Source: Candidatus Fraserbacteria bacterium (GTDB taxonomy: Bacteria > Bipolaricaulota > Bipolaricaulia > RBG-16-55-9 > DRXL01). Taken from it: DNA of 64,000 nucleotides. Positions 3,529 through 21,997 of the stretch are shown piece after piece (position 1 is the first letter of the stretch; each line of letters opens with the position of its first letter). The notes under the pieces were generated by a model. The model saw nothing but the letters and a program-made list of their open reading frames with translations. It did not search any database and was not told the origin of the DNA. The stretch spans positions 76,191 through 140,190 of the forward strand of contig CAMTVK010000007.1 of NCBI GenBank assembly GCA_947085185.1. The letters run 5' to 3'. Made by a program: the position numbers and the translations under genes.

Positions 3529-4577
3529 AACGACTCCCACTCGATAGGCCCACTGAAGTCCGGCAGACTGTCAGCCGTCACAGGCACCGAAGCCCGATAG
3601 ATCGTAGGAATGGGCACCTCCGTCCCAACGCGATAGATATAGACCCGCGCTTGGTCATCGATCGTGTGTCGGAAGTACTCGACGATCAGTTTGAACTTCT
3701 GGAGGAGCAAGGGCTTGCGGCGCTGGCTGCGCGTGATCGCTTCGTTGATATAGAGCTGACTGTCGGCGATATACGCCGAATACGTCACGGCAAAGTCTTC
3801 GTATTGATTGGTCATGGCGTAGAGCGACCGATCGATGGGGTCGCGCGCGAAGTTATCGGGATCTCGTCCGGACTCTTGGAAGAGTTTCTCCCAGCGCTCT
3901 CCTTGATCTGTGGTCGAGCGGGTGAAGTGCACCAGGTGCCCAAGCTCATGAAACGCCACGAGGGTGAAGGTACGGCCGGCGCGCAGGCCGGGAAGCTCAA
4001 TGAGACCAGGTGGGAAATACTGCCCATAGAGATAGATATTGGGTTCGCGGGCGCGGATCTCGCGCAGGCGCCTGAGATGGTCGCCAGGGAGCGAGCGCAA
4101 GACGCCATAGAGCTGCTGACAGTGCAGATCTTCGAGCTCCGTGCCGATCTCGTAGCTCACTTTCACTCTATACTGAGCAGAGATCTCTTTACAGAAGCGT
4201 CGAGGGTAAGTGAGCTCGAGGCGTCCTTCCACGGTTTGTTGGCCGAGATTCGTTACGATCAAGCGCCAGGGCCGGCCCACATCAGCTTCGGTGACTTGGG
4301 TCTTGGCGGTAGCTGAGCCCGTTTGGTCTACGACGGCTTTGTTGTCTAAAAAGAGCTGCACTCGGATGGTCATGGAATAGGGGTGCAGGGAGAGCTTCAG
4401 AGTAATCTCGCCCGTCGTAGTTGGGAGAAAATCGTACTCGAACTTCTCTTGGGATCTGAGGGAGAGCTCGCTGGAGCGCGCGGTGATCGTAGCGCTTGTG
4501 GGCAGGAGCGCGCCCCAGATCAAGAGCATAGCAAGCAAGAGCGTGGGAGCAAGTCGAGTCCGTGTCATAAGAGCCAT
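3525..4577 (-). CDS. Secreted putative zinc metallopeptidase
   Basis: Signal peptide, beta-rich N-domain, HELGH and downstream YAxTNxxEDFA motif. Confidence 0.65.
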   Translation of the reverse strand: MALMTRTRLAPTLLLAMLLIWGALLPTSATITARSSELSLRSQEKFEYDFLPTTTGEITLKLSLHPYSMTIRVQLFLDNKAVVDQTGSATAKTQVTEADVGRPWRLIVTNLGQQTVEGRLELTYPRRFCKEISAQYRVKVSYEIGTELEDLHCQQLYGVLRSLPGDHLRRLREIRAREPNIYLYGQYFPPGLIELPGLRAGRTFTLVAFHELGHLVHFTRSTTDQGERWEKLFQESGRDPDNFARDPIDRSLYAMTNQYEDFAVTYSAYIADSQLYINEAITRSQRRKPLLLQKFKLIVEYFRHTIDDQARVYIYRVGTEVPIPTIYRASVPVTADSLPDFSGPIEWESF

Positions 4578-4706
4578 CTCCTTTCTCGTGAGGTTAGAGT
4601 TATCTTAGCACAGAGTCTTCGGGAGTGCACGGGGAGAGGGTTCTCAGGGGAGCATGTTTGTGTTATAATGACGCAAGACGAGAAACAGACAAAGGAGCAA
4701 CACACA

Positions 4707-7700
4707 GTGACCCAGAAACTTCAAGCGAACCACATCATTGAATCGGATTTTTGGCCAGAACCGGTCCGGGTGCTGACGATAGAGCCCTTGGGCGATCGCA
4801 TGAAAGTGGAGGCCGTGGGCACAAGGACCCAGCGGTTCTATTCGCGCCTCCTCAGTCAGACCGACCTCGCTCTTGTTCGCATTGTCTCAGACACGCAGCG
4901 CGATTTCTTAGGAGATGCTGAGGGCTTTTTTCTCGCCATAGAGGCGCACCGCATCCGCTTCGCCCACCAGTTCGATCCGCTCCTGGCCGTCAACATCTCC
5001 CAAGTGGATCCCTTGCCCCACCAGATCGAGGCAGTTTATCACTACATTCTCCGCACTCCGCAGATCCGGTTTCTGCTGGCGGATGACCCCGGTGCTGGCA
5101 AAACCATCATGACTGGCCTTGTCCTCAAAGAGCTCAAGTATCGGGGACTCGTGCAGCGGACGCTTATCGTCGTCCCGGGGCATCTCAAGGACCAATGGCT
5201 CCGCGAAATGAAGGAGCGCTTTGGCGAGAGCTTCACGGTGATTGATCGTAGCACCATCCACGCTACTTGGGGACGCAATGTTTGGCAGGAGCATCCCCAA
5301 GTGATCACCTCTATGGACTTTGCCAAACAAGAAGATGTGCTGGCTACTTTGGCCGAGGTCCACTGGGACCTGGCGGTCGCGGACGAAGCCCACAAGATGG
5401 CAGCCTATCGATACGGAGACAAGACCAGCAAGACCGAACGCTATCGACTCGGCGAATTGCTTTCCCGCACCAGCCAGTTTCTGCTCTTCCTTACGGCGAC
5501 ACCGCACCGCGGCGACCCAGAAAATTTCCGCCTCTTTCTGGAGCTGCTTGAGCCAGGGATGTTCGCCAATACAGAGCTGTTGCTCGAATCTGTGCAAAAC
5601 CGGGAGAACCCTCTGTTCCTACGTCGGCTCAAGGAGGATTTGCGGGACTTTGAAAACCGCCCGCTCTTTCCGCCACGCAGGGTCTTCACCAAGCCCTATC
5701 GGCTGAGTGATACCGAGAAGCGGCTCTACAATGCCGTCACGGAGTACGTGGAGACGTCCTATAACAAGGCCCTGGCGACCGGAAAGCGCAATGTGGCGTT
5801 CGCGCTGCTCATCCTGCAGCGGCGCATGGCTTCCAGCGTGCGGGCAGTGCGCCGATCGCTCGAACGGCGCAAGGAGCGCCTCGAAAAGCTCCTCAAGCTC
5901 GGGCAGTGGCTGGCCCAAGGCGAGCGGATTGACGAGGACGAACTCGAAGATGCCCCCGAATCCGAGCGCCTCCGCCAAGAAGAAGAGCTCATCGAGCGTC
6001 TCACCTCCGCCGAAACGCGCGAGGAGCTTCAAGAAGAGATCCGCACGCTAGAGGAGCTGGTCCGCCTGGCCAACGAGGCCGAACGCCAGGAAGTGGAAAC
6101 CAAGCTCACGGAGCTTCGCCGCGTCATGGAAGACGAGAAGATTCGTGCCACGGGAGAAAAACTTCTGATCTTCACCGAGTCGCGCGAGACGCTGGAGTAC
6201 CTGTGCGAGAAACTCAGCGCCTGGGGCTATTCGGTCGTCCCCCTCCACGGCGGCATGAACCTGGATGCCCGCATTCGCGCCGAGCATGAGTTTCGTGAGA
6301 AAGCCCAAGTCATGGTCTCCACCGAAGCCGGTGGCGAGGGCATCAATCTCCAGTTCTGCGCCCTCATGGTGAACTACGACATTCCCTGGAACCCAAACCG
6401 CCTGGAGCAGCGCATGGGGCGCATCCATCGCTACGGTCAACACAAAGAAGTGCACATCTATAACCTGGTCGCTAGCGACACGCGCGAGGGAAGGGTACTG
6501 CATGAGCTCTTCCAAAAACTCCAAGAGATTCAAGCTGCCATGGGGTCCGACCGCGTCTTCGATGTGATCGGCGAGCTCGTGCCGGAACGCAGCCTGAAAG
6601 ACCTCATCGTGGAAGCCATTGCCCATCGGCGGACATTGGACGAGATCGTCGCGGAGATCGCAGCCATCCCTAACGAAGAAGCCCTGCGCAAGGTGCGCGC
6701 CGCAGCACTCGAAGCCCTGGCCACCCGGCACATCGAGTTGCACCGGATTCTCGGGGAAGACCGGAAGGCGCGCGAGCAGCGCCTGGTGCCAGAGTATATT
6801 GAGCGCTTCTTTGAGCGAAGCTGCGCCTTCTTGAACATTCGTCTGGAGCGGCGCCGCGATGGCTTCTGGCGGGTGCCCCAGGTGCCGCTTGAGGTGCGCC
6901 ATGTCTCCCGGGAGTTCAAGCACTGCTTTGGGGAACCGTTTCGGGAATACAACAAGCTCGCGTTCGACAAAGAAAAAGCCCGCCGCGGGGATGCTGTCTT
7001 TGTAGCCCCTGGACATCCCTTGTTAGAAGCGATCCTTGAGCGGGTGCTGGCGCAAGGCATCCCCGATGCAAGGCGCGGTGCCATCTTTGCCGACCCCGAC
7101 GGAAAGCTCGACGGCTGGCTGTGGTTCTTGGAGGGCGAGCTGCGCGACGGCACCAACCAGATCGCAGGAAGACGACTCTTCGTCCTCTTGCAACCGCGCC
7201 AGGGAGGCCTGCTCCGGCTGGTCAATAGCTCCATCCTCTGGGACCTCAAACCCTCGATCCCCTCTCAGAGCATAGAACCGTGCCCCCCCGAGGGCGAGAT
7301 CATCGCTTATGCAGCCGAGCATGTGTTGGAAGCTTATCGCCAGGAGCTCCTCGAGGAACGCCAGCGCCAGAACGAGATCAAGAGAAAATACGGTCTGCGC
7401 TCGCTGGAGCAGATGATCCTCGAGTCGGATGCTAAGCTGATCGAATACGAGACGCGCCGTGCCAAGGGCGAGCCGATCCCCGATGCGGAAATCCACAACG
7501 AGCAGCGCCGCAACGAGGAGCTCCGCGCTCGGAAGCACACACTGGAAGAAGAGATCCGCCGGTCCAGCAGCCTCTTACCCTCCGTCCCCAGGGTGCTTGG
7601 AGTCGCCCGTGTGCTCCCCATGATGTCCCCAGACCCGTCCATGCGCCCCGATGCCGACATCGAAGCCATCGGCATGGAGATTGCCATGAACTACGAACGC

Positions 7701-8021
7701 TCTCAAGGACGCGAGCCCGAAGACGTCTCGCTGCAGAACCTCGGCTATGATATTCGCTCTTACGCGCCCGATGGCACACTTCGCTCTATTGAGGTCAAAG
7801 CCCGTGCGACCACCGGTGCGATCGTGCTCACGCCCAACGAATGGGTCATGGCACAGCGTCTGGGCGACGAATACTGGCTCTACATCGTGGAGAACGCCGC
7901 CACAAAGCCCAGGCTCCATCGGATCCAGAACCCGGCGGCTCGGCTCCAGCCCGAAATGGAAGTGTCCATCGTCCGCTACATCATTACAGACTGGCAGAAG
8001 GGAGTGTCCTATGAAGCCTGA
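4707..8021 (+). CDS. SNF2-family helicase with C-terminal DUF3883-like nuclease domain
   Basis: LADDPGAGKT, DEAH, TATPH, GEGINLQ, EQRMGRIHR; C-terminal GYDIRS...IEVK; GTG start after AAGGAG. Confidence 0.9.
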   Translation: MTQKLQANHIIESDFWPEPVRVLTIEPLGDRMKVEAVGTRTQRFYSRLLSQTDLALVRIVSDTQRDFLGDAEGFFLAIEAHRIRFAHQFDPLLAVNISQVDPLPHQIEAVYHYILRTPQIRFLLADDPGAGKTIMTGLVLKELKYRGLVQRTLIVVPGHLKDQWLREMKERFGESFTVIDRSTIHATWGRNVWQEHPQVITSMDFAKQEDVLATLAEVHWDLAVADEAHKMAAYRYGDKTSKTERYRLGELLSRTSQFLLFLTATPHRGDPENFRLFLELLEPGMFANTELLLESVQNRENPLFLRRLKEDLRDFENRPLFPPRRVFTKPYRLSDTEKRLYNAVTEYVETSYNKALATGKRNVAFALLILQRRMASSVRAVRRSLERRKERLEKLLKLGQWLAQGERIDEDELEDAPESERLRQEEELIERLTSAETREELQEEIRTLEELVRLANEAERQEVETKLTELRRVMEDEKIRATGEKLLIFTESRETLEYLCEKLSAWGYSVVPLHGGMNLDARIRAEHEFREKAQVMVSTEAGGEGINLQFCALMVNYDIPWNPNRLEQRMGRIHRYGQHKEVHIYNLVASDTREGRVLHELFQKLQEIQAAMGSDRVFDVIGELVPERSLKDLIVEAIAHRRTLDEIVAEIAAIPNEEALRKVRAAALEALATRHIELHRILGEDRKAREQRLVPEYIERFFERSCAFLNIRLERRRDGFWRVPQVPLEVRHVSREFKHCFGEPFREYNKLAFDKEKARRGDAVFVAPGHPLLEAILERVLAQGIPDARRGAIFADPDGKLDGWLWFLEGELRDGTNQIAGRRLFVLLQPRQGGLLRLVNSSILWDLKPSIPSQSIEPCPPEGEIIAYAAEHVLEAYRQELLEERQRQNEIKRKYGLRSLEQMILESDAKLIEYETRRAKGEPIPDAEIHNEQRRNEELRARKHTLEEEIRRSSSLLPSVPRVLGVARVLPMMSPDPSMRPDADIEAIGMEIAMNYERSQGREPEDVSLQNLGYDIRSYAPDGTLRSIEVKARATTGAIVLTPNEWVMAQRLGDEYWLYIVENAATKPRLHRIQNPAARLQPEMEVSIVRYIITDWQKGVSYEA

Positions 8022-8077
8022 GCGCTATACGCTTACGAAGCACGGCAACTGTTATCAGTGCCGCAAGAGTAAAATCC

Positions 8078-8497
8078 ATGCGGGAACGTGAAGTCATCAG
8101 GACCGTCGCCGAGCGATTGCGCGCGGAAGGACTGATGGACCTGAAGGTGCGCTACGGGAGCGAACCCGGCCCGGACATCGAGGGGACGCTGCCCCGCTCG
8201 CGGCGGCACCTGTTCGTCGAGGCGAAAGGGGAACGGGCTCGCACCTCGCCGCGCATCACCGTGGGAGAGGCGCTCCTCCAGATTCTCTCCCGCTGGGACA
8301 GCGATGTGGTCTGCGCTCTTGCGGTGCCCTATAACAAGGAATTCGAGGAGGTCCTTCGAACCATCCTGCCCGGCCTGCGCTGCCTGGAACTGCATGTCCT
8401 GTTGGCGAAAGATGGTGAAGTGTGGTATCTTAGCCCTAACAAGGCCGGTTTTCTGGTGGAAAAGCCCCTGTCCATCATTGAGGTGCTCGAAAGATGA
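8078..8497 (+). CDS. Small PD-(D/E)XK nuclease-like protein
   Basis: GPDI...FVEAKG...GEALLQ pattern; ATGA overlap with next gene. Confidence 0.6.
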   Translation: MREREVIRTVAERLRAEGLMDLKVRYGSEPGPDIEGTLPRSRRHLFVEAKGERARTSPRITVGEALLQILSRWDSDVVCALAVPYNKEFEEVLRTILPGLRCLELHVLLAKDGEVWYLSPNKAGFLVEKPLSIIEVLER

Positions 8498-10098
8498 GCA
8501 AAGCACAAAAAGCTATGACCCGCGTGATCGAAACCGACTTTCCCCTGCGCGCGGTCTCCGAGGAGTCCGTGCGCGAGAAGAACATCCGCCACGGCCACAT
8601 CTCCACCCTGCACATCTGGTGGGCGCGCCGACCGCTGGCGGCCTCGCGGGCCACCGCATTGGCCGCACTGTTGCCCGATGACCCCAAGCGGCGCAACCAG
8701 TTCCTTGAACTCGTCCGAGGCATCGCCCCGTGGGAGGCCGTCTCCGCCAACAGGGCCGATTCAACCCACCTGCTGGAAAATGCCCGCGCCCTCATCCGCG
8801 AGGCCTTTGACGGCCGCGCCCCGCGGGTGCTCGACCCCTTCGCCGGCGGCGGGAGCATCCCCCTGGAGGCGCTGCGCCTGGGCTGCGAGACCTATGCGCT
8901 GGACTATAACCCGGTGGCCGTGCTGCTCAACAAGTGCGTGCTGGAATACCCGCAAAAGTTCGGCCAACCCGGTTCGGTGGCGCAGGTCCCTTTGCCGCCC
9001 TGTGCGAAGAAGGACGAGGCGGATCTTTTTGGAGCCCACAGGGATGTTCAGGAGAATCCGCCGGGGCGCAGCGGCGCTGCGCCCCTCCTGGTGGCCGTGC
9101 GCGCCTGGGGCGACTGGGTGCTGGAGGAAGCACGCAAGGAACTGGCGCGTTTCTACCCGCCGGACGCGGATGGTTCCGTGCCCGTTGGTTATATCTGGGC
9201 GCGCACGCTGCCCTGCCAGAACCCGGCCTGCGGCGCCGAAATCCCCCTCATGCGCCAGACCTGGCTGGCCAGAAAGGACAACAAGAAGGTCGCCCTGAAG
9301 CTACTGCCGAACCGCGCCGCCCGGCGGGTGGACGCGGCGATTGTGGAGGGCGCGGCCATTGACTTCGACCCGGAGGAGGGCACGACGGCCCGCGCCCACG
9401 TGCGCTGCCCGGCCTGCGGCGGGACGATAGACGATAAGACCACGCGCCGGCTCTTCCGCGAGGGCAAGGCCGGACAGCGCCTGATGGCGGTGGTGCTGCA
9501 CAGGCCCGGCCGCAGCGGCAAGACCTACCGCCTGGCCACCGAGGCGGACCTGGTGGCCTACCGCGCCGCCGAGCAGGCGCTCGTAGGGGCAAGGCAGCGC
9601 CTTGCCCAGGACTGGGGCCTGGACCCCGTGCCGGATGAGCCAACGCCTCTGGGTGGTGGCCCCGGCGCTGAAAGAGCCTTCTCTGTGCACAAGTATGGCC
9701 TGACCCGCTGGGGCGACCTCTTCAACCCCCGGCAGAAACTGGCGCTCATCACCTTTGCCGAGAAGGTGCGCCGCGCCCACGCCGAGATGCTCGCCCAGGG
9801 CGCCGACCCGGAATTCGCCCGGGCAGTGACGACTTATTTGGCGCTGGGGGTGGACATGATGGCGGCTTTCTGCAACTCTTTGGCGCGTTGGGAGAATACG
9901 TCGGAAGCGATAAAACAGCTATTCTCTCGGCAGGCGTTGCCCATGCTTTGGGATTACATAGAACTAAATCCATTCAGTGGCTCAACTGGAAGTTGGGAGG
10001 CCGGTTGGGAGTACTATTTGGAGACGCTCGCCCACCTCATCCAAATCCCGCCGGTATCGGCGGGCGGGTGCGAGGCAGGCACGGAGGGTTTGCCATGA
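8494..10098 (+). CDS. DUF1156 adenine methyltransferase, N-terminal chain (SAM-binding motif I, Zn finger)
   Basis: LHIWWARRPL, LDPFAGGGSIPLEA, two Cys pairs, LFNPRQ; stops before DPPY. Confidence 0.88.
   Translation: MSKAQKAMTRVIETDFPLRAVSEESVREKNIRHGHISTLHIWWARRPLAASRATALAALLPDDPKRRNQFLELVRGIAPWEAVSANRADSTHLLENARALIREAFDGRAPRVLDPFAGGGSIPLEALRLGCETYALDYNPVAVLLNKCVLEYPQKFGQPGSVAQVPLPPCAKKDEADLFGAHRDVQENPPGRSGAAPLLVAVRAWGDWVLEEARKELARFYPPDADGSVPVGYIWARTLPCQNPACGAEIPLMRQTWLARKDNKKVALKLLPNRAARRVDAAIVEGAAIDFDPEEGTTARAHVRCPACGGTIDDKTTRRLFREGKAGQRLMAVVLHRPGRSGKTYRLATEADLVAYRAAEQALVGARQRLAQDWGLDPVPDEPTPLGGGPGAERAFSVHKYGLTRWGDLFNPRQKLALITFAEKVRRAHAEMLAQGADPEFARAVTTYLALGVDMMAAFCNSLARWENTSEAIKQLFSRQALPMLWDYIELNPFSGSTGSWEAGWEYYLETLAHLIQIPPVSAGGCEAGTEGLP
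9063..9088 (-). repeat. In-frame REP-like palindrome
   Basis: GGGGCGCAGCG-G-CGCTGCGCCCC with GGAG foot on minus strand. Confidence 0.6.
9583..9607 (+). repeat. In-frame GTAG-type REP
   Basis: GTAG-GGGCAAGGC-AGC-GCCTTGCCC. Confidence 0.7.
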
Positions 10099-10403
10099 CC
10101 AAGCGCGTACCAAAGCGGTTGGAGGAAATCCTGGAGACGCTCCGCCAACACAAGACGGAACTGGCGGAGCGCTACGGGGTGCGGGAGATGGCCGTCTTCG
10201 GCTCCTATGCCCGCGGCGAGGCCGGGCCCGAGAGCGACCTGGACATTCTCGTGGAGTTCACCGACCCGCCGGGGCTCATTGGCTTCATCCGGCTGGAGAA
10301 CGAGCTCAGCGAACTCCTGGGCGTGCGGGTAGAACTGGTAACACGACAGGCGCTCAAGCGCCATATCGGCGAGCGAATTTTAGACGAGGCGGTGCCAGCA
10401 TGA
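10095..10403 (+). CDS. mntA: Minimal nucleotidyltransferase (MNT) antitoxin
   Basis: FGSYARGE...SDLD (GSX10DXD); ATGA overlap with methylase stop. Confidence 0.9.
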   Translation: MTKRVPKRLEEILETLRQHKTELAERYGVREMAVFGSYARGEAGPESDLDILVEFTDPPGLIGFIRLENELSELLGVRVELVTRQALKRHIGERILDEAVPA

Positions 10404-10744
10404 AGCGTGCGCTGAGGGATTATCTGGAAGATATGCTTTGCTCCGCTCGGGAAGCGCTGGAGTTCACCGAAGGGATGGACTTTGCCATGTTCTGCCATGA
10501 CCGGAAGACGTTCAATGCGGTGTTGCGTTCTTTGGAAGTGCTCGGCGAAGCGGCAAAGAAAATCCCGAAGCCGGTGCGCGCCAAATACCCCGACCTGCCC
10601 TGGCAGGAAATGGCGGGGATGCGCGATAAACTCATCCATGAGTATCACGGCGTGGATGAGCGAATCGTCTGGAAAACGGTTCGCGAGGACATTCCACCGT
10701 TGATACCTCTCTTGGAAAGAATCCTTCGGGAGGAGAGCCAATGA
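10400..10744 (+). CDS. hepT: HEPN (DUF86) RNase toxin
   Basis: RDKLIHEY (RX4HXY); coupled to MNT by ATGA. Confidence 0.9.
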   Translation: MKRALRDYLEDMLCSAREALEFTEGMDFAMFCHDRKTFNAVLRSLEVLGEAAKKIPKPVRAKYPDLPWQEMAGMRDKLIHEYHGVDERIVWKTVREDIPPLIPLLERILREESQ

Positions 10745-10834
10745 GCACTGGAAGTAGATTTGCTCACCCCCGGCTCATTTCGCCGCAAACCTCGCTTATG
10801 GGACCAGGTGAAGGAGGATTTGACCTATGTCTAA
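10741..10834 (+). pseudogene. Internally deleted second MNT
   Basis: ATG then out-of-frame EVDLLTPGSFRRKPRLWDQVKEDLTYV*, resembling an MNT C-terminus. Confidence 0.65.
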
Positions 10835-11012
10835 GCGCGATTGGACGTTCTTCCTTCAGGATATGCTGGAAAGCGTACAAGTGGGCTTGCGAAACCGTCT
10901 TGCCCATGCTTCCTTCGCTATCGACGACGAAATCGTCTGGGATATCGTGACTAACGAACTGCCCCTACTGAAAGAAAGATTGGAACGTATTCTCCGCGAG
11001 GTGCATGGATGA
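10827..11012 (+). pseudogene. Internally deleted second HEPN/DUF86 (61 aa, in frame)
   Basis: MSKRDWTFFLQDML joined to GLRNRLAH...DDEIVWDIV; middle of domain missing. Confidence 0.8.
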
Positions 11013-12283
11013 AGACCCTGCTGCTGCCACAGGTTACCCACGGCACCGCCACCGACCTGCCCTGGCCCGATAACTTCTTCGACGCCGTGCTCACCGACCC
11101 GCCCTACTACGATAACGTCCCCTACGCCGACCTTTCCGACTTTTTCTACGTCTGGCTCAAGCGCACCGTGGGCGACCTGTACCCCGACCTCTTCGCTACC
11201 CCGCTCACGCCGAAATCACAAGAGATGGTCGCCGACGCCAGCAAGGCGGGCGGTATGGATCAGGCCAAGCGCCGCTTTGAGGAGATGCTCACCCAGTCCT
11301 TCCGCGAGATCCACCGCGTGCTCAAGCCCGACGGGATCGCCGTGATCGTCTTTGCCCACAAGACGACCGCGGCCTGGGAGACGGTCATTCAAGCGCTCTT
11401 GGAGGCCGGCCTCTACATGACCGCCTCCTGGCCCATCCACACCGAGATGCAGGCGCGCTTGCGGGCGCAGGAGTCGGCGGCGCTGGCTTCTTCCATCTAC
11501 ATGGTCTGCCGCAAGCGCACTGTAGGGGCGGACGGCCGTCCGCCCATCGGCGAATTTGCCAAAGTGCGGCGGGAGATCGAAGAGCGGGTGCAGCGCAAAC
11601 TCGCCCAGTTCTGGGACGAGGGCATCCGCGGGGCGGACTTCTTCATGAGCGCCATAGGCCCGGCGGTGGAAGCCTTCGGCCGCTACGCCCGCGTGGAAAA
11701 ACTCTCCGGCGAGCCGGTCACGGTGACAGAACTGTTGGAGTACGTGCGCAAGGTGGTAAGCGAGTTTGCCTTGAGGCGCATCTTGAAAGAGGCGTACCGG
11801 GGCGGGGTGGATGCGCTCACGCAGTTGTATCTGCTGTGGCGCTGGACGTATAATCACGCGCGGGTGCCCTTTGATGAAGCCCGCAAACTCGCGGCCGGCG
11901 TCGGCGTGGAGCTCTCCCAACAGTGGGGTCCTGGAGGAATCGTGAGCAAACAGAAAGAGTACATCGTGATGCGCACCCCCCAAGACCGCGCCCAAGACGA
12001 GCGCTTCGCCCAGCACACGGAATTCCGCACCATGATCGATGCGCTCCATCGGGCTGTGGCCCTGTGGGAACGCAATCGGCAACGCGAGCTCCAGGAGCAC
12101 CTAGCGCAAACCTATGGGACCAATGAGGCGTTCTGGCAAGTGGCGCAAGCGATCAGCGAGGTGCTCCCCGACGGCGATAAAGAAAAACAAACGCTTCAGG
12201 GGCTTCTCTATAGGCACAGGTCCTATACCATACCCACCCCTGGCGAAACTCCACTCCCCTTTGAGAAAGGAGAGGCACCATGA
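11009..12283 (+). CDS. DUF1156-type adenine methyltransferase, C-terminal catalytic chain
   Basis: TDPPYYDNVPYADLSDFFYVW, RVLKPDG, SWPIHTE, ALASSI. Confidence 0.9.
   Translation: MKTLLLPQVTHGTATDLPWPDNFFDAVLTDPPYYDNVPYADLSDFFYVWLKRTVGDLYPDLFATPLTPKSQEMVADASKAGGMDQAKRRFEEMLTQSFREIHRVLKPDGIAVIVFAHKTTAAWETVIQALLEAGLYMTASWPIHTEMQARLRAQESAALASSIYMVCRKRTVGADGRPPIGEFAKVRREIEERVQRKLAQFWDEGIRGADFFMSAIGPAVEAFGRYARVEKLSGEPVTVTELLEYVRKVVSEFALRRILKEAYRGGVDALTQLYLLWRWTYNHARVPFDEARKLAAGVGVELSQQWGPGGIVSKQKEYIVMRTPQDRAQDERFAQHTEFRTMIDALHRAVALWERNRQRELQEHLAQTYGTNEAFWQVAQAISEVLPDGDKEKQTLQGLLYRHRSYTIPTPGETPLPFEKGEAP
11522..11545 (+). repeat. In-frame GTAG-type REP
   Basis: GTAG followed by perfect 20-bp palindrome GGGCGGACGGCCGTCCGCCC. 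Confidence 0.75.
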
Positions 12284-14901
12284 AGCCATGGTATCACACG
12301 ATCACCCCCCATCGGGACATCCGCGAGGGAAAGTTTGACGAATCGGTCTTCGCCGCCGATCTCTCGGACGTCATGGCCGGTCGAGCATCGGTGGAGTATC
12401 GCGATCCGGTCACGTTCTTTCGCAAGACCTACCCGACGCACGGCTTGAGGAACTTGCTTGCCGCGGTGCTGAAGCGGCTCTCCGGCTCAGGCCACGGGGA
12501 GAGCGTCATCCAAATCCAGACCCCCTTCGGCGGTGGCAAGACCCACAGCTTGATCGCGCTCTATCACGTGTTCAAGCACGCCCAAGAGCTTGAGGGTGTG
12601 GAGACCGTGGCGGAGATCCTCAAGGAAGCCCATACAGAAACAATCCCGCAGACACGGGTGGTGAGCTTTGTCGGGACCGCCCTTGATGCGCTTGGGGGCC
12701 GGACGCCCTGGGGCGAACTGGCGCATCAGTTGGAAGAGTACGAACAGCTCAAGGAGCATGATCGGCGGCGCCGCACCCCAGGGAAGGATCTCTTGCACAA
12801 GCTCTTGCACGGCGAGCCAACCCTGATCCTCATGGATGAGCTCGCTGAATATGCCGTGAAAGCCAAGGACTTCCGCGACCAGGTGGTGGCGTTCATGCAG
12901 GAGCTCACCGAGACCGTGAAGGTGCTGCCCCGCTGCGCACTGGTGGTGACGCTGCCCTCCAGTGCCCCCTACGGTGAAGAAGGCGAACGTGCGCTCCACG
13001 AACTGCAGCAGATCTTCAAGCGCGTGGAGACCATCAAAACCCCGGTGGAAGGGGAGGAGATCTACGAAGTCATCCGCAGGCGACTCTTTGAAGATCACGG
13101 GGATGAAAGAGAGATCAGGCGCGTCGCCGAAGCCTACTGGGAGCTGTACCAACGCTTAGGGGACGATGTGCCCCGCGAGGTGCGCGAGCTGGCATATCGG
13201 GAACGGATGCGCAAGGCCTATCCGTTTCATCCCGAACTGATCGACGTGCTGTTTGAGCGCTGGAGCACCTTTCCCGATTTTCAGCGCACGCGCGGCGTGT
13301 TGCGCCTGCTGGCCCAGATCGTGGCCGAGCTGTACCGGCAGCAGCATCCCGCGCCGCTCATCCAACCCTGCCACATCAACCTGACCGATCCGGCCATACG
13401 CGCCGAGTTCTTGCGACACATCGGCAACGAGTACCAGGGCGTGATCGCCTCGGACATCGGCGGCCCCAACGCCAAGGCTGAGAAGATCGATCGGGAGATG
13501 GGCTCGGAATACGCACGGTTCCGCATTGCCAGCGGGGTGGCACGAGCGATCTTCTTTGCTTCCTTCAGCGGCTCAGAGAAGAAAGGCGTCGGGATTCAGC
13601 GGCTGCGGCTTGCGGTACTCACCCCCGAAATACCCCCAGCGATCGTCAGCGATGCCCTGCGCCGCCTGGAAGATGAGCTATGGTATCTGCATACGGAAGG
13701 GGGGCTCTATTCGTTCTCCAGCCAGCCCAATCTCAACCGGGTGATCATCGAACGAGAGGAAGCGATCAAACCGGAGCAGATAGAAGAAGAGATCGAGAGA
13801 CGCCTGGAGCACCTGGCGGGCAGGGACATAGAGGTACGGCTCTTCCCCCACGATACGCACGATGTGCCCGATACCAAAGAGCTGAAGCTTGCTGTCCTTC
13901 CGCTGGACTATCCTCGCCAAGCCAGCCAAACGGAAGAATTCGCAAAGAACCTGCTCACCAAGTGTGGACAGACCTTCCGGGTCTATCGGAACACCTTGGT
14001 GCTGCTTGGTGCCGATGACAGAGAGCTCGCTTCCCTGCGCGAGAATGCCAAACGCTGGCTCGCGCTGCAGACTATTGCCGACGACAAGGAGCTGATGCGG
14101 CGGCTTTCGGATGAGAACAAGAGATGGCTGGAGACCAAGCGCAAGGATGCCGAAGGCAAGACGGGGTTTCAGCTCCTCAGTGCCTTCAGGCATCTTGCGA
14201 AAGCCGGTGTGGAGAGCACAGGCAGCGTGGAGTGGCACGATCTGGGCATTCCCACAGCAGGAGAAAAGACATCCCTGGCGTCTCGGGTGCGTGAGTACCT
14301 GCACACCCAGGAGCTCTTGCTGGAGAAGCTGTCTCCAAGGCGTCTTGTAGAAAAAGCCTGGCCCCCCGAAGACCAAGAAACACCGATCGAAGAGATCATC
14401 GAGGCGTTTCGCAAGTATCCGAACCTCCCCATGATCAGTGGGGCCCATGCCGTTTTGGATGCCATCGTCCAGGGGGTGCAAGAGGGTATATGGGGCGTGC
14501 GGGTTGGCGAGAAGATATACTTCCGTGAGGCCGTTCCCCGCTCGGCACTGGAAGGGGACGCGGTCTTGGTGCGGGCGGGGCATATCCCCGTATCGCCGCC
14601 AGCACCGCAAGAAATCGAATCTTCTACGACCCTACAGCCAACACCCGCCCCGCCGCCCCCTGCACCTCGCCAAGGGATCCAAACCTACTCTTTGCGGGCC
14701 AAAGTGCCATGGGACAAGCTCTCGGATTTTGTGCGCGGGGTCGTGACCCCCCTGCGGCAGGACGGCGCAGAGCTGGAGATTGAAGTCTCCCTCCAAGCCC
14801 ACACCCAATCCCAGGGGATCAAGAATCAGACGCTCGAACAGAAAGTGCGCGAGACACTCAAGCAGATCGGCGCCGAACTCCTAGATGAGTCGCAAGGGTG
14901 A
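12280..14901 (+). CDS. DUF499 AAA+ ATPase
   Basis: FAADL, FFRKTY, QTPFGGGKTH, ILMDE, YPFHPE, FQRTRGVLR. Confidence 0.9.
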   Translation: MKPWYHTITPHRDIREGKFDESVFAADLSDVMAGRASVEYRDPVTFFRKTYPTHGLRNLLAAVLKRLSGSGHGESVIQIQTPFGGGKTHSLIALYHVFKHAQELEGVETVAEILKEAHTETIPQTRVVSFVGTALDALGGRTPWGELAHQLEEYEQLKEHDRRRRTPGKDLLHKLLHGEPTLILMDELAEYAVKAKDFRDQVVAFMQELTETVKVLPRCALVVTLPSSAPYGEEGERALHELQQIFKRVETIKTPVEGEEIYEVIRRRLFEDHGDEREIRRVAEAYWELYQRLGDDVPREVRELAYRERMRKAYPFHPELIDVLFERWSTFPDFQRTRGVLRLLAQIVAELYRQQHPAPLIQPCHINLTDPAIRAEFLRHIGNEYQGVIASDIGGPNAKAEKIDREMGSEYARFRIASGVARAIFFASFSGSEKKGVGIQRLRLAVLTPEIPPAIVSDALRRLEDELWYLHTEGGLYSFSSQPNLNRVIIEREEAIKPEQIEEEIERRLEHLAGRDIEVRLFPHDTHDVPDTKELKLAVLPLDYPRQASQTEEFAKNLLTKCGQTFRVYRNTLVLLGADDRELASLRENAKRWLALQTIADDKELMRRLSDENKRWLETKRKDAEGKTGFQLLSAFRHLAKAGVESTGSVEWHDLGIPTAGEKTSLASRVREYLHTQELLLEKLSPRRLVEKAWPPEDQETPIEEIIEAFRKYPNLPMISGAHAVLDAIVQGVQEGIWGVRVGEKIYFREAVPRSALEGDAVLVRAGHIPVSPPAPQEIESSTTLQPTPAPPPPAPRQGIQTYSLRAKVPWDKLSDFVRGVVTPLRQDGAELEIEVSLQAHTQSQGIKNQTLEQKVRETLKQIGAELLDESQG

Positions 14902-16652: not shown

Positions 16653-16789
16653 TCACCAGAGCAAGCGCCATTTGCACGGTCCTGGACTTTCTGCTATACT
16701 TGTCGGACCGATGGCGGTTTGTGGGTTGGACTCCGTGAGAACTCTCTCTCTTCCAGAACTTTGTGCATGAACTCCATGGGGGGATGCGT

Positions 16790-17023
16790 ATGCCGTTGTA
16801 TCGCTATCTCTGTGAGACGTGCGGACATAGCTTTAGCGTGCTCGACTCATTCGAGAGCCCCGACCAGCGCGATTGCGAGGAGTGCGGCGCCTCACGAGCC
16901 CGCCGTCTCCCCTCGCGCGTCGGCATCCAATACAAGGGCACAGGGTTTTACACGACCACCTATAGACGGAAAGGCTCGGAATCCAAAGACGCAGCCCAAA
17001 CGGCCAACCGAACAGACACCTAG
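16790..17023 (+). CDS. FmdB-family zinc ribbon protein
   Basis: MPLYRYLCxxC...CxxC...KGTGFY. Confidence 0.85.
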   Translation: MPLYRYLCETCGHSFSVLDSFESPDQRDCEECGASRARRLPSRVGIQYKGTGFYTTTYRRKGSESKDAAQTANRTDT

Positions 17024-17044
17024 CAGCGCGAAGGGGGAGCAGAC

Positions 17045-20000
17045 GTGATCAGCGGGGACGACATCGCCAAACTGCGTATTGGTTTGGCCTCACCTGAGGA
17101 GATCAAGAGCTGGTCTCGCGGGGAGGTCACCGAATCCGAGACGATCAATTACAGGACGCATAAGGCCGAGCGCGGCGGCCTCTTCGCCGAGGAGATCTTC
17201 GGCCCGGAGAACGACTACGAGTGCGCCTGCGGAAAGTACCGTGGGCGCAAGCACGAAGGGATCACATGCGAAAAGTGCGGGGTGCTCGTCACAAGCTCCG
17301 ACGTGCGCCGCTCCAATATGGCCCACGTGGAGCTCGCCAGCCCCGTCGTCCATTTTTGGTATCTGAAGGGGATCTCCTCGCCCTTGAGCACCTTGCTGGG
17401 CATCAAGCGCGCGACCCTCAAAAAGATCGCGTATTACGAAACAACCCCCATCGAAGAAGAGATGTACATCGTCACCCAGTCGGGCTCTGGGGATTTCTCC
17501 AAGGGCGACATCGTCTACGGGACGCAGTTGCATATCTTGGGGGAGAAGAAGAAATTCACGGCAGAGCGCCTGTACGCCCTCGAGAGCGACTTTACGATCT
17601 CCGCTGAGGGCGACGGGAAGGTCTCGTTTGAGAAGATCAAGCTCGAAAACGGCGAGGAGCTGAAGCTCATCAAGCTCGCCAATGCCACGAAAGCCTTCCC
17701 TGTGCCGCTCAACGCGGAGATGCTTGTGCAGTCCGGCGAGAAAGCCCAGGTCGGCCAGCCCCTGGCACGCCTGCTCAAAGAAGAGTATCTCAGCGAGACG
17801 ACTTTTAACTTCCTCAAGAGCGTCTACCCCGACCTCAAGGGCAAAAAAGTCATAGAAACCGTGGACAGCTTGATCTACCTCGTCACGAGCGTCAAGAGCC
17901 CCCACGTGCCTCTCAAAGTTGGGGATCGCCTCTGGGAGCTCGAAAAGAGCGCTTATGAGAAGCTCTACCCGGGGCAGTTTGAAGCCGAGACTGGGGCTGC
18001 AGGGATCAAGGGCGTCTTAGCGAACTTAGACTTAGCTGCTCTGGAAGCTGAACTCCATGCGATGATCGCGCAAGAGCCCACCGAGGGCAAGCGCAAACGC
18101 CTCCTCAAGCGCCTCGAGATCGTCCAGCAAGTGCGCCGCAGCGGCAACCACCCCCAAAATATGGTGCTCAGTGTTATCCCAATCTTGCCCCCGGAGCTGC
18201 GCCCCATCGTCCAATTAGAGGGCGGCAAGTTCGCCACCACCGATCTCAACGACCTCTACCGACGGATCATCAACAGAAATAACAGGCTGAAAAAGCTCTT
18301 AGAGATGGGCGCTCCCGAAGTGATCTTGCGCAACGAGCGCAGAATGCTCCAAGAGGCCGTGGACGCACTCATCCACAACGAGAAGAAAGACAACCCCATC
18401 TTAGGACGAGACAATCGCCCCTTAAAATCTTTGAGCGAACGCATCCAGGGCAAGCACGGGCGACTGCGAAGAAATCTCCTTGGCAAGAGAGTTGACTACT
18501 CTGGCCGCGCGGTCATCGTCGTCAACCCCAAGCTCAAACTTCATCAGTGTGGCCTGCCCAAGAAGATGGCCTTAGAGCTTTTTAAGCCCTTTATCCTCTC
18601 ACGCCTGGGCGTGACGGCCATCTCAAACTTTGACGACGTCAAGAACAAAGCGCTCTCCGGAGAGATGCCCGAGGTCTGGGATATCCTCGAGCAGCTCGTC
18701 AAAGAGCACCCGGTCCTGCTCAATCGCGCTCCCACCCTGCACCGCCTGGGCATCCAAGGGTTCGAGCCGGTCTTGGTCGACGGGGAGTCCATTCAGATTC
18801 ACCCGTTTGTCTGCCGCCCCTACAACGCTGACTTCGACGGCGACATGATGGCCGTGCATCTGCCCCTCAGCAAAGAAGCGATCCAAGAGACGCGCGAGAT
18901 CATGCTCTCGTCCAAGAATATCCTCTCCCCGGCCAACGGCAAGCCCCTCAGCATCCCCACCCAGGACGCGATCTTCGCCTATTACTATCTGTCCATACTC
19001 GATCCAAACGGCTTGGGCAAGGGCAAGTATTTTGCCAATCTTGCCGAAGCCCAGCGCGCCTACGAAGAGAAACTCATCTCGCTCCATGCCCCCATCAAAA
19101 TTCGCATAGACGGCAAGCTCATAGACACAACCCTTGGACGCGCCCTGCTCAATACGGCCTTCCCCCCGGATCTGCGCGACTACGGAAAAACTTTCGATTC
19201 CGATGCCATCAATGCGCTCATCATGGAATGCTATTTCAAGCACGGCTTAGAGCGCACCGTGCAGCTCCTCGATGACCTCAAAGACTTAGGGTTCTCGTTT
19301 GCGACCAGATCGGGATTGACCATCTCTGTGCGCGACTGCTTAATTCCCCCTGAAAAAGAAGCGATTCTCGCCGAAGCGCGGCAGCGCGTCGCCAAGATCA
19401 ACGAGCGCTACGAGCGCGGTCTCGTCACCGACGAAGAGCGCAAGACCAAGATCATAGAAGTCTGGATGGAAACCGTGGACAAGATCGCCGACGCCACCAT
19501 GAAGAACCTCGCCCAGCACCCATTCAACCCGATCTATATGATCGTGGAGTCTGGGGCGCGCGGCAGCGCCACCCAAGTGAAGCAGCTCTCCGGGATGCGC
19601 GGCCCCATGAGCGACCCCTCCGGACGCATCATCGAGATGCCGGTCATCTCCAACTTCCGTGAAGGGCTGAACGTCATCGAGTACTTCATCAGCACGCACG
19701 GCGGACGCAAGGGCACCGCCGACACGGCCTTGAAGACTGCCGACTCAGGATATCTGACCCGACGCTTAGTGGACGCCACAGAAGAGCTGATCGTGAAGGC
19801 TGAAGATTGTGGGACGACCGAGGGCATCGAGATAGACCCGCTCTATTATACCAAACCTCACGAGGTCATGGAGACTATCGAGGAACGCATCTACGGGCGT
19901 GTGCTGGCCCAAGATCTCGTCTTTCTGGGCCAGACCCTGATGAAGCGCGGTGAGGTCTTCGATCGTGAGAAAGCCCAGCGCATCGGAGGGCTCCAAGCCG

Positions 20001-21997
20001 AACTCTCCACCAGCGATCGCGCGTTCTACGAGCAGGTAGTGGGCACCAAGGCCGCCCAAGATATTCGCGATCCCAAGACCAACCACGTGGTCGTCTCCCA
20101 AGACGAGACCATCACGCGGGCACTAGCAGAGAAACTGCGCGCCCTCAAGATCGAGACGATCCGCGTGCGCCCTACGATCGTCGTCCGGTCACCCATGCGC
20201 TGCACCGTCCGACGCGGCGTCTGTCAACAGTGCTACGGCTACGATCTGAGCACCCATAAGTTAGTCGAGCTTGGTACGGCCGTGGGCGTCATCGCCGCGC
20301 AGTCTATTGGCGAGCCCGGCACCCAATTAACCATGAAGACCTTCCACACCGGGGGCGTAGCAGGCATAGATATCACCCAGGGTCTGCCTCGTGCAGAGGA
20401 GCTCTTTGAGGCGCGCAAGGCCGTGCGAAGCTCCCAGAGCGAGATCGCACCGATCAGCGGTGTCGTGACACACCTCACCCAGTCCCCACAGACCGGACGA
20501 CCGATGGTCACCTTGCACGGCGACGAGAGGCGCATCCGACTGCCCAAAACGCTCTGCGCCTCCCCAGGACAGGGCCCAGCCATACAGCTAGGCCAGCTGC
20601 TCCAGAGCCACAGCCCCCGCAGCGGCACAGTGCGGATCATCGAAACGGAAAAGCTCCGCAAGCTCTATATTCTCGAGGAGCACGATACTCTCTACACCGT
20701 GCCGGAGGGCGTCAAGCCCCTCGTGAGCCACGGCCAGAAAGTCCCTGCAGAGACGCTGCTCGCCGAGCCGTTCCATGAAGAGCCTCTGATCTCGACCGTG
20801 GACGGCGTCGTCGAGGAGGTCATAGAGAACGAGGAACGCGCCATCATCATCAAAGAGAAGGAGACCGGCAACCGCGTGCGCTACAAGATCCCCTACGGGG
20901 CACGCCGCTCCGTCAACCCCGGTGACAAGGTCGTGCAAGGCGAAAAACTCTCCACGAGCTCCAAGCCCATCGAGCTGCGCGCGCGCACCGCAGGCTACGC
21001 CATCGTCACCAAGAACCAGATTATCGTCTATCAGCCCGCCGAGGGCAAGGAGTTCACGCTCACCGAGGACGTCACCGTCTTAAAGGCCGACGGAGACTGG
21101 GTCGAAGCTGGAGAGCCGCTCTTCGCGCTCACCCTGCCCAGCGATGAGCTTGTGCACATTGACTCTATCAGATCTATAGACGACGAGCTCGTCGAGATCG
21201 CTTATCACCAAGAGACAACAGTCGAGCTGACCAACCCCCCAACGGTGCGCGTCGGCGATAAAGTACAAAAGGGCGAACTCCTCTCCAAAGGGGTGATCTC
21301 GCCCCATCGATTGCTGAGCATCGCTGGGGTGGACAAAACGAGAACATATCTGCTTGAAGAGATCCACAAAGTCTACAAGAGCCAGGGCGTGGATATCAAC
21401 GACAAGCATATCGAGCTGGTCATTCGGCAGATGCTCAACAACGTGCGCATCATTGACCCAGGAGATTCGCAATTCTTGCCCAACGAGCTGGTCCTGCTAG
21501 AAGAGTTCCAAGCGGAGAACAAGCGTCTGCTTGAGGAGAATCGTCAGATTCGTCTCCAGCGCGAGCAGATCATCGGCCTGACGGTGGCTGCGCCGATTAC
21601 CGATAAGACGGGAGCGGTCATCGCGGCGAAGGGCAGCACGGTGACGAGCGAGCTGCTCCGTGCGGCGCTGCGCGCCGGGGTGACGGAGATCGTGCTGGAG
21701 CGTGGCAAGGAGAAGGTGACACAGCGCATCGCGGAAAAGCGCCTGCCCAACGGCGAGCGCGTGCTGTTGCGCATCTCCAAAGCAGCCCTGGAGACCAAGT
21801 CGTGGCTCTCGGCCGCGTCGTTCCAGAGGACCACGACTGTGCTGGCCGAAGCGGCGCTCAAGGGCGCTGTGGACCGCTTAGAGAGTCTCAAGCCCGCCGT
21901 GATCGTGAGCAAGAGAATCCCTGCGGGGACGGGCTTCAAACGTCCGGCGCCTCAGCCAACGGCTATGCCCGCCCCTGAAGCGCAGCAGACTGCATGA
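17045..21997 (+). CDS. rpoC: DNA-directed RNA polymerase subunit beta-prime
   Basis: ETINYRT, Zn finger, [45 protein letters not shown]. Confidence 0.98.

Follow-up and report, generated by a model that had tools for sequence, protein, structure and literature searches.

The window analysed here is a stretch of 64,000 nucleotides (nt) from contig CAMTVK010000007.1 of a Candidatus Fraserbacteria bacterium; coordinates given without a locus name refer to it. Positions 4668-14901 hold an operon of the Hma (type-1 BREX-related) family, in which PADLOC matched HmaA, HmaB (in two pieces) and HmaC. The subject of this report is the methylase gene of that operon, hmaB, which is divided into two open reading frames (ORFs) by a toxin-antitoxin pair, consisting of a minimal nucleotidyltransferase (MNT) and a HEPN ribonuclease, together with the remains of a second such pair. 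The ORF list and the sequence place all ORFs of the operon on one strand, in a run linked by stop/start overlaps. The genes and gene remnants are, in order:

4668..8021, + strand: hmaA, an SNF2 helicase with a C-terminal NOV_C/DUF3883 nuclease-like domain (PADLOC HmaA, 712.9 bits; Pfam SNF2-rel_dom, Helicase_C and NOV_C).
8078..8497, + strand: a gene for 139 amino acids (aa) between hmaA and hmaB, possibly a small Mrr-like PD-(D/E)xK nuclease.
8494..10098, + strand: hmaB N chain, 534 aa, with the DUF1156 helical domain, core strands 1-2, motif I (DPFAGGG) and a target-recognition insert with a CxxC...CxxC zinc ribbon.
10095..10403, + strand: mntA, 102 aa, an intact minimal nucleotidyltransferase antitoxin (GSYARGE...SDLDILV).
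10400..10744, + strand: hepT, 114 aa, an intact HEPN RNase toxin with the Rx4H motif RDKLIH, followed by EY.
10745..10834, + strand: remnant of a second mntA, 'type A', comprising the C-terminal 29 codons without a start codon (ALEVDLLTPGSFRRKPRLWDQVKEDLTYV, then the stop).
10827..11012, + strand: remnant of a 'type A' hepT, a 61-aa ORF with an in-frame internal deletion, in which the ribosome-binding site and start are kept.
11009..12283, + strand: hmaB C chain, 424 aa, with core strand 3, motif IV (DPPY), the remaining core strands and a C-terminal domain.
12280..14901, + strand: hmaC, 873 aa, a DUF499 AAA+ ATPase (PADLOC HmaC, 548.8 bits; Pfam DUF499).

The N-terminal ORF of hmaB contains RVLDPFAGGGS and ends in LAHLIQIPPVSAGGCEAGTEGLP followed by the stop codon, and the C-terminal ORF begins with MKTLLLPQVTHGTATDLPW and contains LTDPPYYDNVPY. 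On the PADLOC HmaB profile (973 positions) the former covers positions 5-550 and the latter 572-920. HmaB is therefore not found as a single one-copy gene: all of its parts are present, as two ORFs 911 nt apart, and they make up the sole HmaB of this genome. Pfam recognised DUF1156 in the N-terminal ORF with 77.8 bits, and the NCBIfam model DUF1156_antiphage matched both halves weakly (116.6 and 79.8 bits, with a cut-off of 1000). A preliminary description made from the letters alone had reported a methylase in two intact ORFs, with motif I in 8494-10098 and DPPY in 11009-12283, and the ORF list and PADLOC bear this out.

The first pair between the halves is intact. MntA scored 67.2 bits with Pfam NTP_transf_2, 101.8 bits with PADLOC PDC-S09 and 45 bits, under the cut-off of 60, with NCBIfam MntA_antitoxin; HepT scored 97.4 bits with Pfam HepT-like (cut-off 23.5; profile positions 2-120 of 120) and 35.6 bits, again under a cut-off of 60, with NCBIfam HepT_toxin. 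The hallmarks of MntA-HepT modules are present, namely the Rx4-6H HEPN motif and an adjoining upstream GS...DxD nucleotidyltransferase with a 4-nt overlap. In type VII toxin-antitoxin systems, HepT toxicity is neutralised via MntA-catalysed tyrosine AMPylation, and in the window a tyrosine lies two residues past the motif histidine of HepT (IHEY). The genome holds just three HepT-like matches, two of which sit in the hmaB gap, so that the association of this cargo with hmaB is not a by-product of its abundance in the genome.

The second pair has decayed. Its mntA remnant lies directly 3′ of the hepT stop, in the hepT frame, and is 57-61% identical over 28 residues to the MNT C-termini of three loci from the survey described below (L006, L022 and L037). 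The hepT remnant covers only positions 84-120 of Pfam HepT-like and is 63-69% identical to the type A HepT of the same loci; it retains about 16 N-terminal residues and the C-terminal third (RNRLAH...), and about 54 residues are gone in frame relative to the L006 homologue. The preliminary description had correctly recognised an intact and a decayed pair, and also that the 61-aa HEPN remnant stays in frame and hands over to the C chain, which it does through the ATGA at 11009-11012. The second MNT remnant, however, is 10745-10834 and not the 69-aa ORF at 10741-10950, which overlaps the hepT stop but is in another frame and matches no family; that ORF was rejected as a candidate. Because the true remnant has no start codon, only four of the five junctions that had all been described as start/stop overlaps are overlaps from gene to gene, and the one between hepT and the second MNT remnant is not. 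The four are the ATGA sequences joining hmaB-N to mntA (10095-10098), mntA to hepT (10400-10403) and the HepT remnant to hmaB-C (11009-11012), and the overlap of the hmaB-C stop with the hmaC start (12280-12283). GGAGG-like sequences lie 7-12 nt before every start, that of the C chain included, within the final codons of the preceding gene; GGAGG precedes the ATG at 10827 and GAGGTG the ATG at 11009.

Contigs from two public runs, possibly including the source sample, bridge positions 8702-10688 and 10215-11079 with 0 differences, and a joint without cargo was not seen in the contigs of four public runs. The split is not a misassembly.

We then asked how often hmaB is split. A collection with one genome per species was searched with the C half, which gave 79 loci, and a metagenome scan gave 80 loci. 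In the genome collection, 56 of the 79 loci hold both halves. They form one open frame in 47 loci and are separated at the linker by inserted DNA in eight (L006, L010, L026, L030, L033, L037, L038 and L066), with the halves 257-1,300 nt apart; in L017 the halves are contiguous but the frame holds stops, in the N part. The other 23 loci are without an N half, mostly through contig ends. The metagenome loci comprise 54 fused, 19 split and 7 uninformative cases. Across both collections, 27 of the 129 informative loci (21%) have the break in the same linker, or about 22 distinct split cases once near-duplicates (L095/096/097, L131/133, L006/098 and L114/120) are taken into account.

In 25 of the 27 split loci the gap contains MNT and/or HepT, as judged by Pfam for the genome loci and by tblastn at E < 1e-6 for all. 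Of the remaining two, L030 has an insertion sequence transposase in the gap and L010 a 257-nt remnant with nothing recognisable. In three further loci (L015, L022 and L041) an MNT/HEPN module lies directly upstream of the C half and the N half is absent from the contig; the cargo of L041 belongs to another HEPN family, PF05168. At least four cargo subfamilies were distinguished (A, B, C and that of the window), mutually 35-56% identical, and the PF05168 type is a fifth. A gap holds one, two or three pairs in tandem; in L125 and in L131/133 they follow each other as C-A-B. The intact pair of the window is part of the general MNT-HepT pool and is not specific to hmaB: its nearest relative is in L173 (69% identity), and others are free-standing. 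At L173:1363-2842, in a Thermoflexus metagenome-assembled genome, two MNT-HepT pairs flank a 27-aa fragment of the hmaB C half with no hmaB nearby, and this array seems to be what remains of an Hma locus that was lost apart from its cargo.

Protein collections gave a similar picture. Among the best 120 protein relatives of the N half, 58 are 483-545 aa long, 48 reach 880 aa or more and 14 fall outside both classes, and 51 of the 58 short ones end just past H-[LVI]-[TSA]-x-I-P-P. Likewise, 67 of the best 120 relatives of the C half are 400-445 aa long and start 20-45 residues before DPPY. The best 150 representatives at 50% identity are mostly fused; about a dozen begin at the C half, some of which are possibly truncated gene calls. 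The same split occurs in none of the 15 HmaB-bearing genomes among 60 relatives. The preliminary description had proposed that the linker is a hotspot for cassettes, and had named a unique, recent split or a misassembly as outcomes that would speak against its reading. The survey upholds the hotspot, at which cargo of several subfamilies is found, and the split recurs.

MNT/HEPN ORFs are not confined to the linker. A census counted 68 in the linker, along with 24 downstream of hmaB and 7 upstream; one excepted, they are on the strand of the operon. In about 19 related loci an MNT gene or MNT-HEPN pair also separates hmaB from hmaC and is on the same strand (e.g. L004:9471-10018, L027:2297-2940 and L055:7778-8532).

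The position of the break is nearly constant. The split N chains all stop a few codons past ...LAHLTxIPP, and the C chains all begin just before ...V-x-x-G-S-A-T-x-L-P-W-P-D; in fused homologues a linker of 6-20 residues, variable in length and sequence, occupies this place, as the preliminary description had expected for single-chain relatives. A structural model of the fused homologue P0132, built from a 90-sequence alignment, reached a mean predicted local distance difference test score (pLDDT) of 92.6 and a predicted template modelling score of 0.92. With 39 close sequences, an earlier model of a fused homologue had reached a pLDDT of just 63.3, and it was discarded as poor. On the P0132 model, the N chain of the window corresponds to residues 5-511 and the C chain to 519-915. 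The break falls at residues 512-518, in a proline-rich loop (507-520) between the last helix of the insert (491-506) and a core strand (521-524), and this loop is the local pLDDT minimum, with a value of 81. In this model, strands 102-105 and 123-128 come before the insert, which spans about 150-506, and strands 521-524 and 537-542 come after it. The layout is that of group alpha, with DPFAGGG in the N chain, a central target-recognition insert and DPPY in the C chain.

The single-domain methylases Trm11, Trm14 and TrmN align with the model over residues ~10-684, that is, across the break (Z 15-16, 170-181 residues, root-mean-square deviation 2.1-2.9). Since they do so, strands 1-2 of the N chain and strands 3-7 of the C chain would belong to one Rossmann domain, and the model thus points to a single methylase domain built from both chains. 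A Foldseek search of the fused model against the PDB returned nothing at E <= 0.001, and sequence searches of the PDB gave no useful match. The fold at the break site agrees with the description of type-1 BREX-related methylases, which have a ‘TRD insert after core strand 2’ (TRD, target-recognition domain; PMC12839542), and with that of MtsC of the MANTIS system, a group-alpha methylase with motif I at 241-245, a central TRD and DPPY at 621-624 (bioRxiv 10.64898/2026.09.23.753747).

We considered whether the N-chain tail (LAHLTRIPP...) is borne by the cassette and rejected this: the tail is present in 26 of 48 fused relatives, in the fused consensus and in an allele with an empty site, L093. 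Novelty in the N tail is confined to its last few codons. A separate observation concerns the ~200 nt before the LAHLTxIPP tail (N-chain residues ~440-505; window ~9810-10010; L090:4118-4318), which are hypervariable among alleles that otherwise resemble each other, with 53-65% nucleotide identity compared with 85-92% elsewhere. This stretch occurs in a few discrete sequence types that are common to fused and split alleles.

To examine how both halves are maintained, we calculated the ratio of nonsynonymous to synonymous substitution (dN/dS) by the Nei-Gojobori method; split and fused alleles were compared using all pairs with dS of 0.3-1.5. Among split loci of the same cargo type, the N half gave dN/dS values of 0.20-0.32, apart from two pairs of low divergence (0.45-0.51), and the C half values of 0.07-0.25. 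Between split alleles the N-half median was 0.167 (n=52), compared with 0.190 between fused alleles (n=739); the corresponding values for the C half were 0.141 (n=103) and 0.183 (n=897). This comparison, which is descriptive, supports purifying selection on both halves that appears no weaker than in fused alleles. Relaxed selection on the halves, which the preliminary description had named as evidence that would count against a working enzyme, was not seen. The surroundings are kept as well. Of 30 listed split loci, 28 have hmaC after the C half, mostly adjoining it and in several further off, and hmaA lies upstream of the split hmaB wherever the contig extends. The ATGA-type overlap between N chain and MNT is shared by the window, L026, L033 and L037, other loci come near to such an overlap, and terminator-like sites show no excess over shuffled sequences. 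The split also outlasts decay of the cargo: the antitoxin gene alone is left in L038, L083 and L066, and 257 nt in L010.

The distribution of cassettes argues for frequent exchange. In a tree of the C half (66 rows), split alleles occur only in one thermophile-rich clade of 39 rows, where they are scattered among fused alleles. Parsimony requires 8 changes between split and fused on this tree, and the well-supported branches alone force at least 3. Together, the tree and the cargo types point to what were probably many separate events. In comparisons among L090, L095, L138 and L116, dS was 0.06-0.19 in the cargo versus 0.49-0.95 in the hmaB halves, and sliding windows showed cassettes 95-99% identical between flanks that were 53-90% identical. 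In many split alleles the nearest fused relative differs between the two flanks. The fused L093 and the split L038 are 97% identical over the first 900 nt of the C half; at the site, L093 reads ...LAHLTRIPPVE-DL-PQVKQGSAT, and L038 reads ...LAHLTRIPPVEGDSDG and a stop, then the MNT gene, then MLKQILVPQVKQGSAT. These two are an empty and an occupied site between the same flanks.

Stacked cassettes carry further traces of exchange. Between them lies a chimeric ORF of 50 aa made of a C-chain head and an N-chain tail (L115:3078-3230, L131:3429-3581 and L133:3572-3724), and at L086:2042-2386 such a head/tail ORF is further fused to HepT. These chimeric ORFs are remnants left when two loaded alleles recombined. 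A 45-nt direct repeat of the N tail precedes both stacked cassettes, and the first residues of the C chain co-vary with the type of the adjoining cargo. A repeat search around the cargo found no transposon-like flanking direct or inverted repeats beyond short chance matches, and the ORF list holds no recombinase in the gap of the window. The simplest account would be homologous (and unequal) recombination between alleles of hmaB, by which cassettes are gained or lost, become stacked and pass from one allele to another.

Inserts of other kinds were seen in related hmaB genes. LAGLIDADG/Hint inteins lie after ...SDFFY, at C-half residue 47/48 and ~17 residues past DPPY, in L023:3-2453, L033:2117-4687, L060:1-2787 and L022:269-3155; the intein of L022 is broken by a frameshift, and L033 has a cassette split and an intein together. 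In L021:5949-9248, L100:2700-6254 and L013:7035-9221 the N half contains an in-frame DUF559 (Vsr-like endonuclease) domain as an insert, at residue ~158 or ~430, and the hmaB of L013 is also broken at this insert. hmaB in this clade collects several kinds of selfish insert. Two N-half HmaB proteins of 638-639 aa, P0183 and P0216 (also L041:2-442), end in a C-terminal PF05168 HEPN domain (PF06634 + PF05168); they are methylase-HEPN fusions, a type of protein that the 2013 HEPN survey stated it had not encountered (PMC3710099).

Among the other genes of the window, the longest ORF of hmaA opens at 4383, and its translation makes the ATG at 4668 (MTQDEK...) the likely start. The 139-aa gene at 8078-8497 had no Pfam, PADLOC or NCBIfam match. 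Its protein-atlas feature score of 0.94 to clusters named Mrr-like restriction endonuclease is a lead only. It shows a PD...EAK pattern, and homologues occupy the same position in 30 related loci, fused and split alike. Further downstream, at 16763-21997, an ORF for an 86-aa zinc-ribbon protein is followed by an RNA-polymerase beta-prime-like ORF of seemingly unusual length (1,650 aa).

Natural two-subunit DNA methyltransferases are known: in M.AquI the catalytic domain comes from two polypeptides. That enzyme differs from the split HmaB in being a C5-cytosine methyltransferase, divided within its variable region and not known to have cargo between its genes. Embedding of genes in Hma operons has been described before. 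Payne et al. reported embedded genes in 62.7% of 1,485 Hma systems (bioRxiv 10.1101/2024.01.29.577857), and a second study, which described an ‘insertion hotspot in hmaABC’, reported them in 66.5% of systems (PMC11232893). As in the window, small defence or toxin modules are nested on the same strand of the same operon family; the published cargo, however, lies between hma genes, whereas here it lies inside hmaB and makes two chains of it. In the curated set of Payne et al. each hma gene is present once and none is a pseudogene (bioRxiv 10.1101/2024.01.29.577857), and a split hmaB was therefore excluded from that set. No description of an hmaB split by cargo was found in the Hma, BREX-related and HEPN/MNT literature searched, in its accessible parts and with preprint supplements outside the search. 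Our results confirm that the feature is real, and that it is an intragenic, gene-splitting embedding as opposed to the published intergenic one.

The nearest analogue in kind is the nrdA gene of Aeromonas phage Aeh1, which is split by the homing endonuclease gene mobE and whose two products cooperate through tails derived from the insertion (Crona et al. 2010, PMC3045599). There too, a selfish gene in a conserved enzyme gene has left two ORFs with short new tails. The insert in hmaB, unlike mobE, is a toxin-antitoxin module with no known mobility enzyme, stacked up to three times, and function is deduced here but was shown biochemically there. Two ORFs with novel tail and head codons are seen in hmaB as in nrdA, and for retention of function the evidence is that of selection. 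A HEPN ribonuclease nested in a modification operon has a precedent in PrrC, the anticodon nuclease of the EcoprrI type Ic restriction-modification operon, for which a role as a second line of defence has been proposed (PMC3710099). PrrC, however, lies between genes, is fused to an ABC-ATPase and is inactivated by the restriction-modification proteins, whereas the RNase of the window has its own MntA and lies within the methylase frame. For the enzyme itself, MtsC of MANTIS is a close comparison: this BREX-related type 2 methylase has the same group-alpha core with motif I, central TRD and DPPY, and a DUF499 ATPase partner that loads the methylase, and adenine hemimethylation was demonstrated for it (bioRxiv 10.64898/2026.09.23.753747). 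It differs from the HmaB of the window in being one chain and in belonging to another system, which has four genes and a PLD-helicase effector.

Overall, the first reading of the locus, a two-chain methylase with a cassette hotspot, is supported, and we regard it as probable that hmaB of the window encodes a working two-chain methylase with embedded toxin-antitoxin or back-up cargo. The anatomy, the recurrence, the position in a loop, the purifying selection and the discordance between cassettes and flanks are all documented above. We propose that a group-alpha adenine methylase gene was opened at one permissive surface loop, where the insert ends and core strand 3 begins, and that an MntA-HepT module took its place in the opening. 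The 5′ end of the cassette would supply the N chain with a few codons and a stop, along with its own ribosome-binding site, and the 3′ end would equip the C chain with a ribosome-binding site, a start codon and a short run of new codons. A single operon transcript would be translated, by stop/start coupling, into N chain, MntA, HepT, C chain and HmaC. The two HmaB chains would reassemble non-covalently into one Rossmann methylase domain that does the job of the fused HmaB, presumably adenine methylation of DNA aided by the DUF499 ATPase, by homology with MtsC and MtsA of MANTIS. MntA would hold the HepT RNase inactive, and, should expression of the locus fail, HepT may serve for addiction or as a back-up effector of growth arrest. 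Cassettes would be gained, lost, stacked and swapped through the conserved flanks and would decay in place, and the window may present an intact pair beside the remnant of an older one.

Several points weigh against this reading. In Halomonas, HmaA alone defended against T4 and was non-toxic without HmaB, and overexpression of HmaB gave no modification phenotype (PMC11232893); because of these results, the role of HmaB as a protective methylase is unproven, and the selection on the halves could reflect another function. The pairs used for dN/dS are not independent, with several metagenome loci being near-duplicates, and part of the divergence may predate the split, since gain and loss are frequent. 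Decay is also seen: L015 is without an N half, and L006, L038, L066, L083, L098, L099 and the second pair of the window have a truncated HepT or none. The loop of hmaB is one of several landing places, with MNT/HEPN genes also at intergenic junctions of the operon. In addition, metagenome assemblers can join strains at a conserved cassette and so inflate mosaicism.

Some of these points would fit a simple history, in which insertion of the toxin-antitoxin module killed hmaB and the operon is decaying, with ORFs intact only because the event is recent. The loss of the N half in L015, the stops in the N part of L017, the frequent decay of cargo and the apparent dispensability of HmaB for HmaA-mediated defence in Halomonas (PMC11232893) would all agree with such pseudogenisation. 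However, the split affects 27 of 129 loci at a single loop, and both ORFs are open in every case where the contig includes both, dN/dS of 0.14-0.17 is not above that of fused alleles, the split persists after the cargo has decayed to MNT alone or to 257 nt (L038, L083 and L010), and stop/start overlaps, ribosome-binding sites, hmaA and hmaC are conserved, so that we consider it very unlikely. Less improbable, yet still unlikely, is that the cassette acts as a regulator or guard, with HepT/MntA tied to HmaB as PrrC is to EcoprrI: inhibition of the methylase or of hma translation by phage would free the RNase, and the split would enforce the coupling. The cargo is indeed nearly always MNT/HepT (25 of 27), in the same orientation and translationally linked; the N-half/HEPN fusion proteins P0183 and P0216 exist; and HEPN RNases in restriction-modification operons have been proposed as second-line effectors, a back-up role that comparative work favours for HEPN genes in such operons (PMC3710099; PMC12839542). 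Yet the same modules occur at intergenic junctions of these operons and free-standing elsewhere, of all parts HepT is lost most often, with the split left in place, and the fit of at least four unrelated subfamilies to one site argues against a specific protein-protein interface.

A full-length HmaB might also be restored, through protein trans-splicing, ribosomal bypass or excision of the cargo from the DNA. Inteins do occur in the hmaB of relatives, but at another site (C-half residue 47/48), and an empty-site allele exists. Pfam, however, found no Hint, Intein_splicing or LAGLIDADG match in either hmaB ORF of the window, whose extra tails are 5-15 residues long, and there are no flanking repeats beyond chance, no recombinase in the gap and no cargo-less joint in the contigs of four runs; restoration is accordingly extremely improbable. 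Beyond the two-chain methylase with embedded cargo, which we continue to favour, one can conceive of the MntA-HepT modules of thermophile Hma operons as gene-splitting, self-accommodating elements that bring their own stop, ribosome-binding sites, start and tail and head peptides, and spread via one loop in a homing-like manner without a nuclease of their own. With the synthesis of HepT and MntA tied to translation of hmaB, such an element would be a sensor that turns loss or phage shut-off of the modification arm into RNase arrest. This is a speculative idea and rather doubtful, if somewhat less so than the guard function.

The split hmaB has consequences for how such loci are found and used. 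Pipelines that require each gene of a system once and intact would discard about one fifth of the close relatives examined here. The linker is a natural, recurrent split point for a large group-alpha DNA methylase and is useful for the design of split enzymes, and the empty and occupied pair L093/L038, with the arrays of one to three cassettes, amounts to ready-made constructs. For the biology of these operons, the finding extends ‘guilt by embedding’ from the space between defence genes to the inside of one. It provides a tractable case of how toxin-antitoxin modules without a mobility gene repeatedly reach the same few nucleotides, and it allows a direct test of whether embedded RNase toxins guard modification enzymes.

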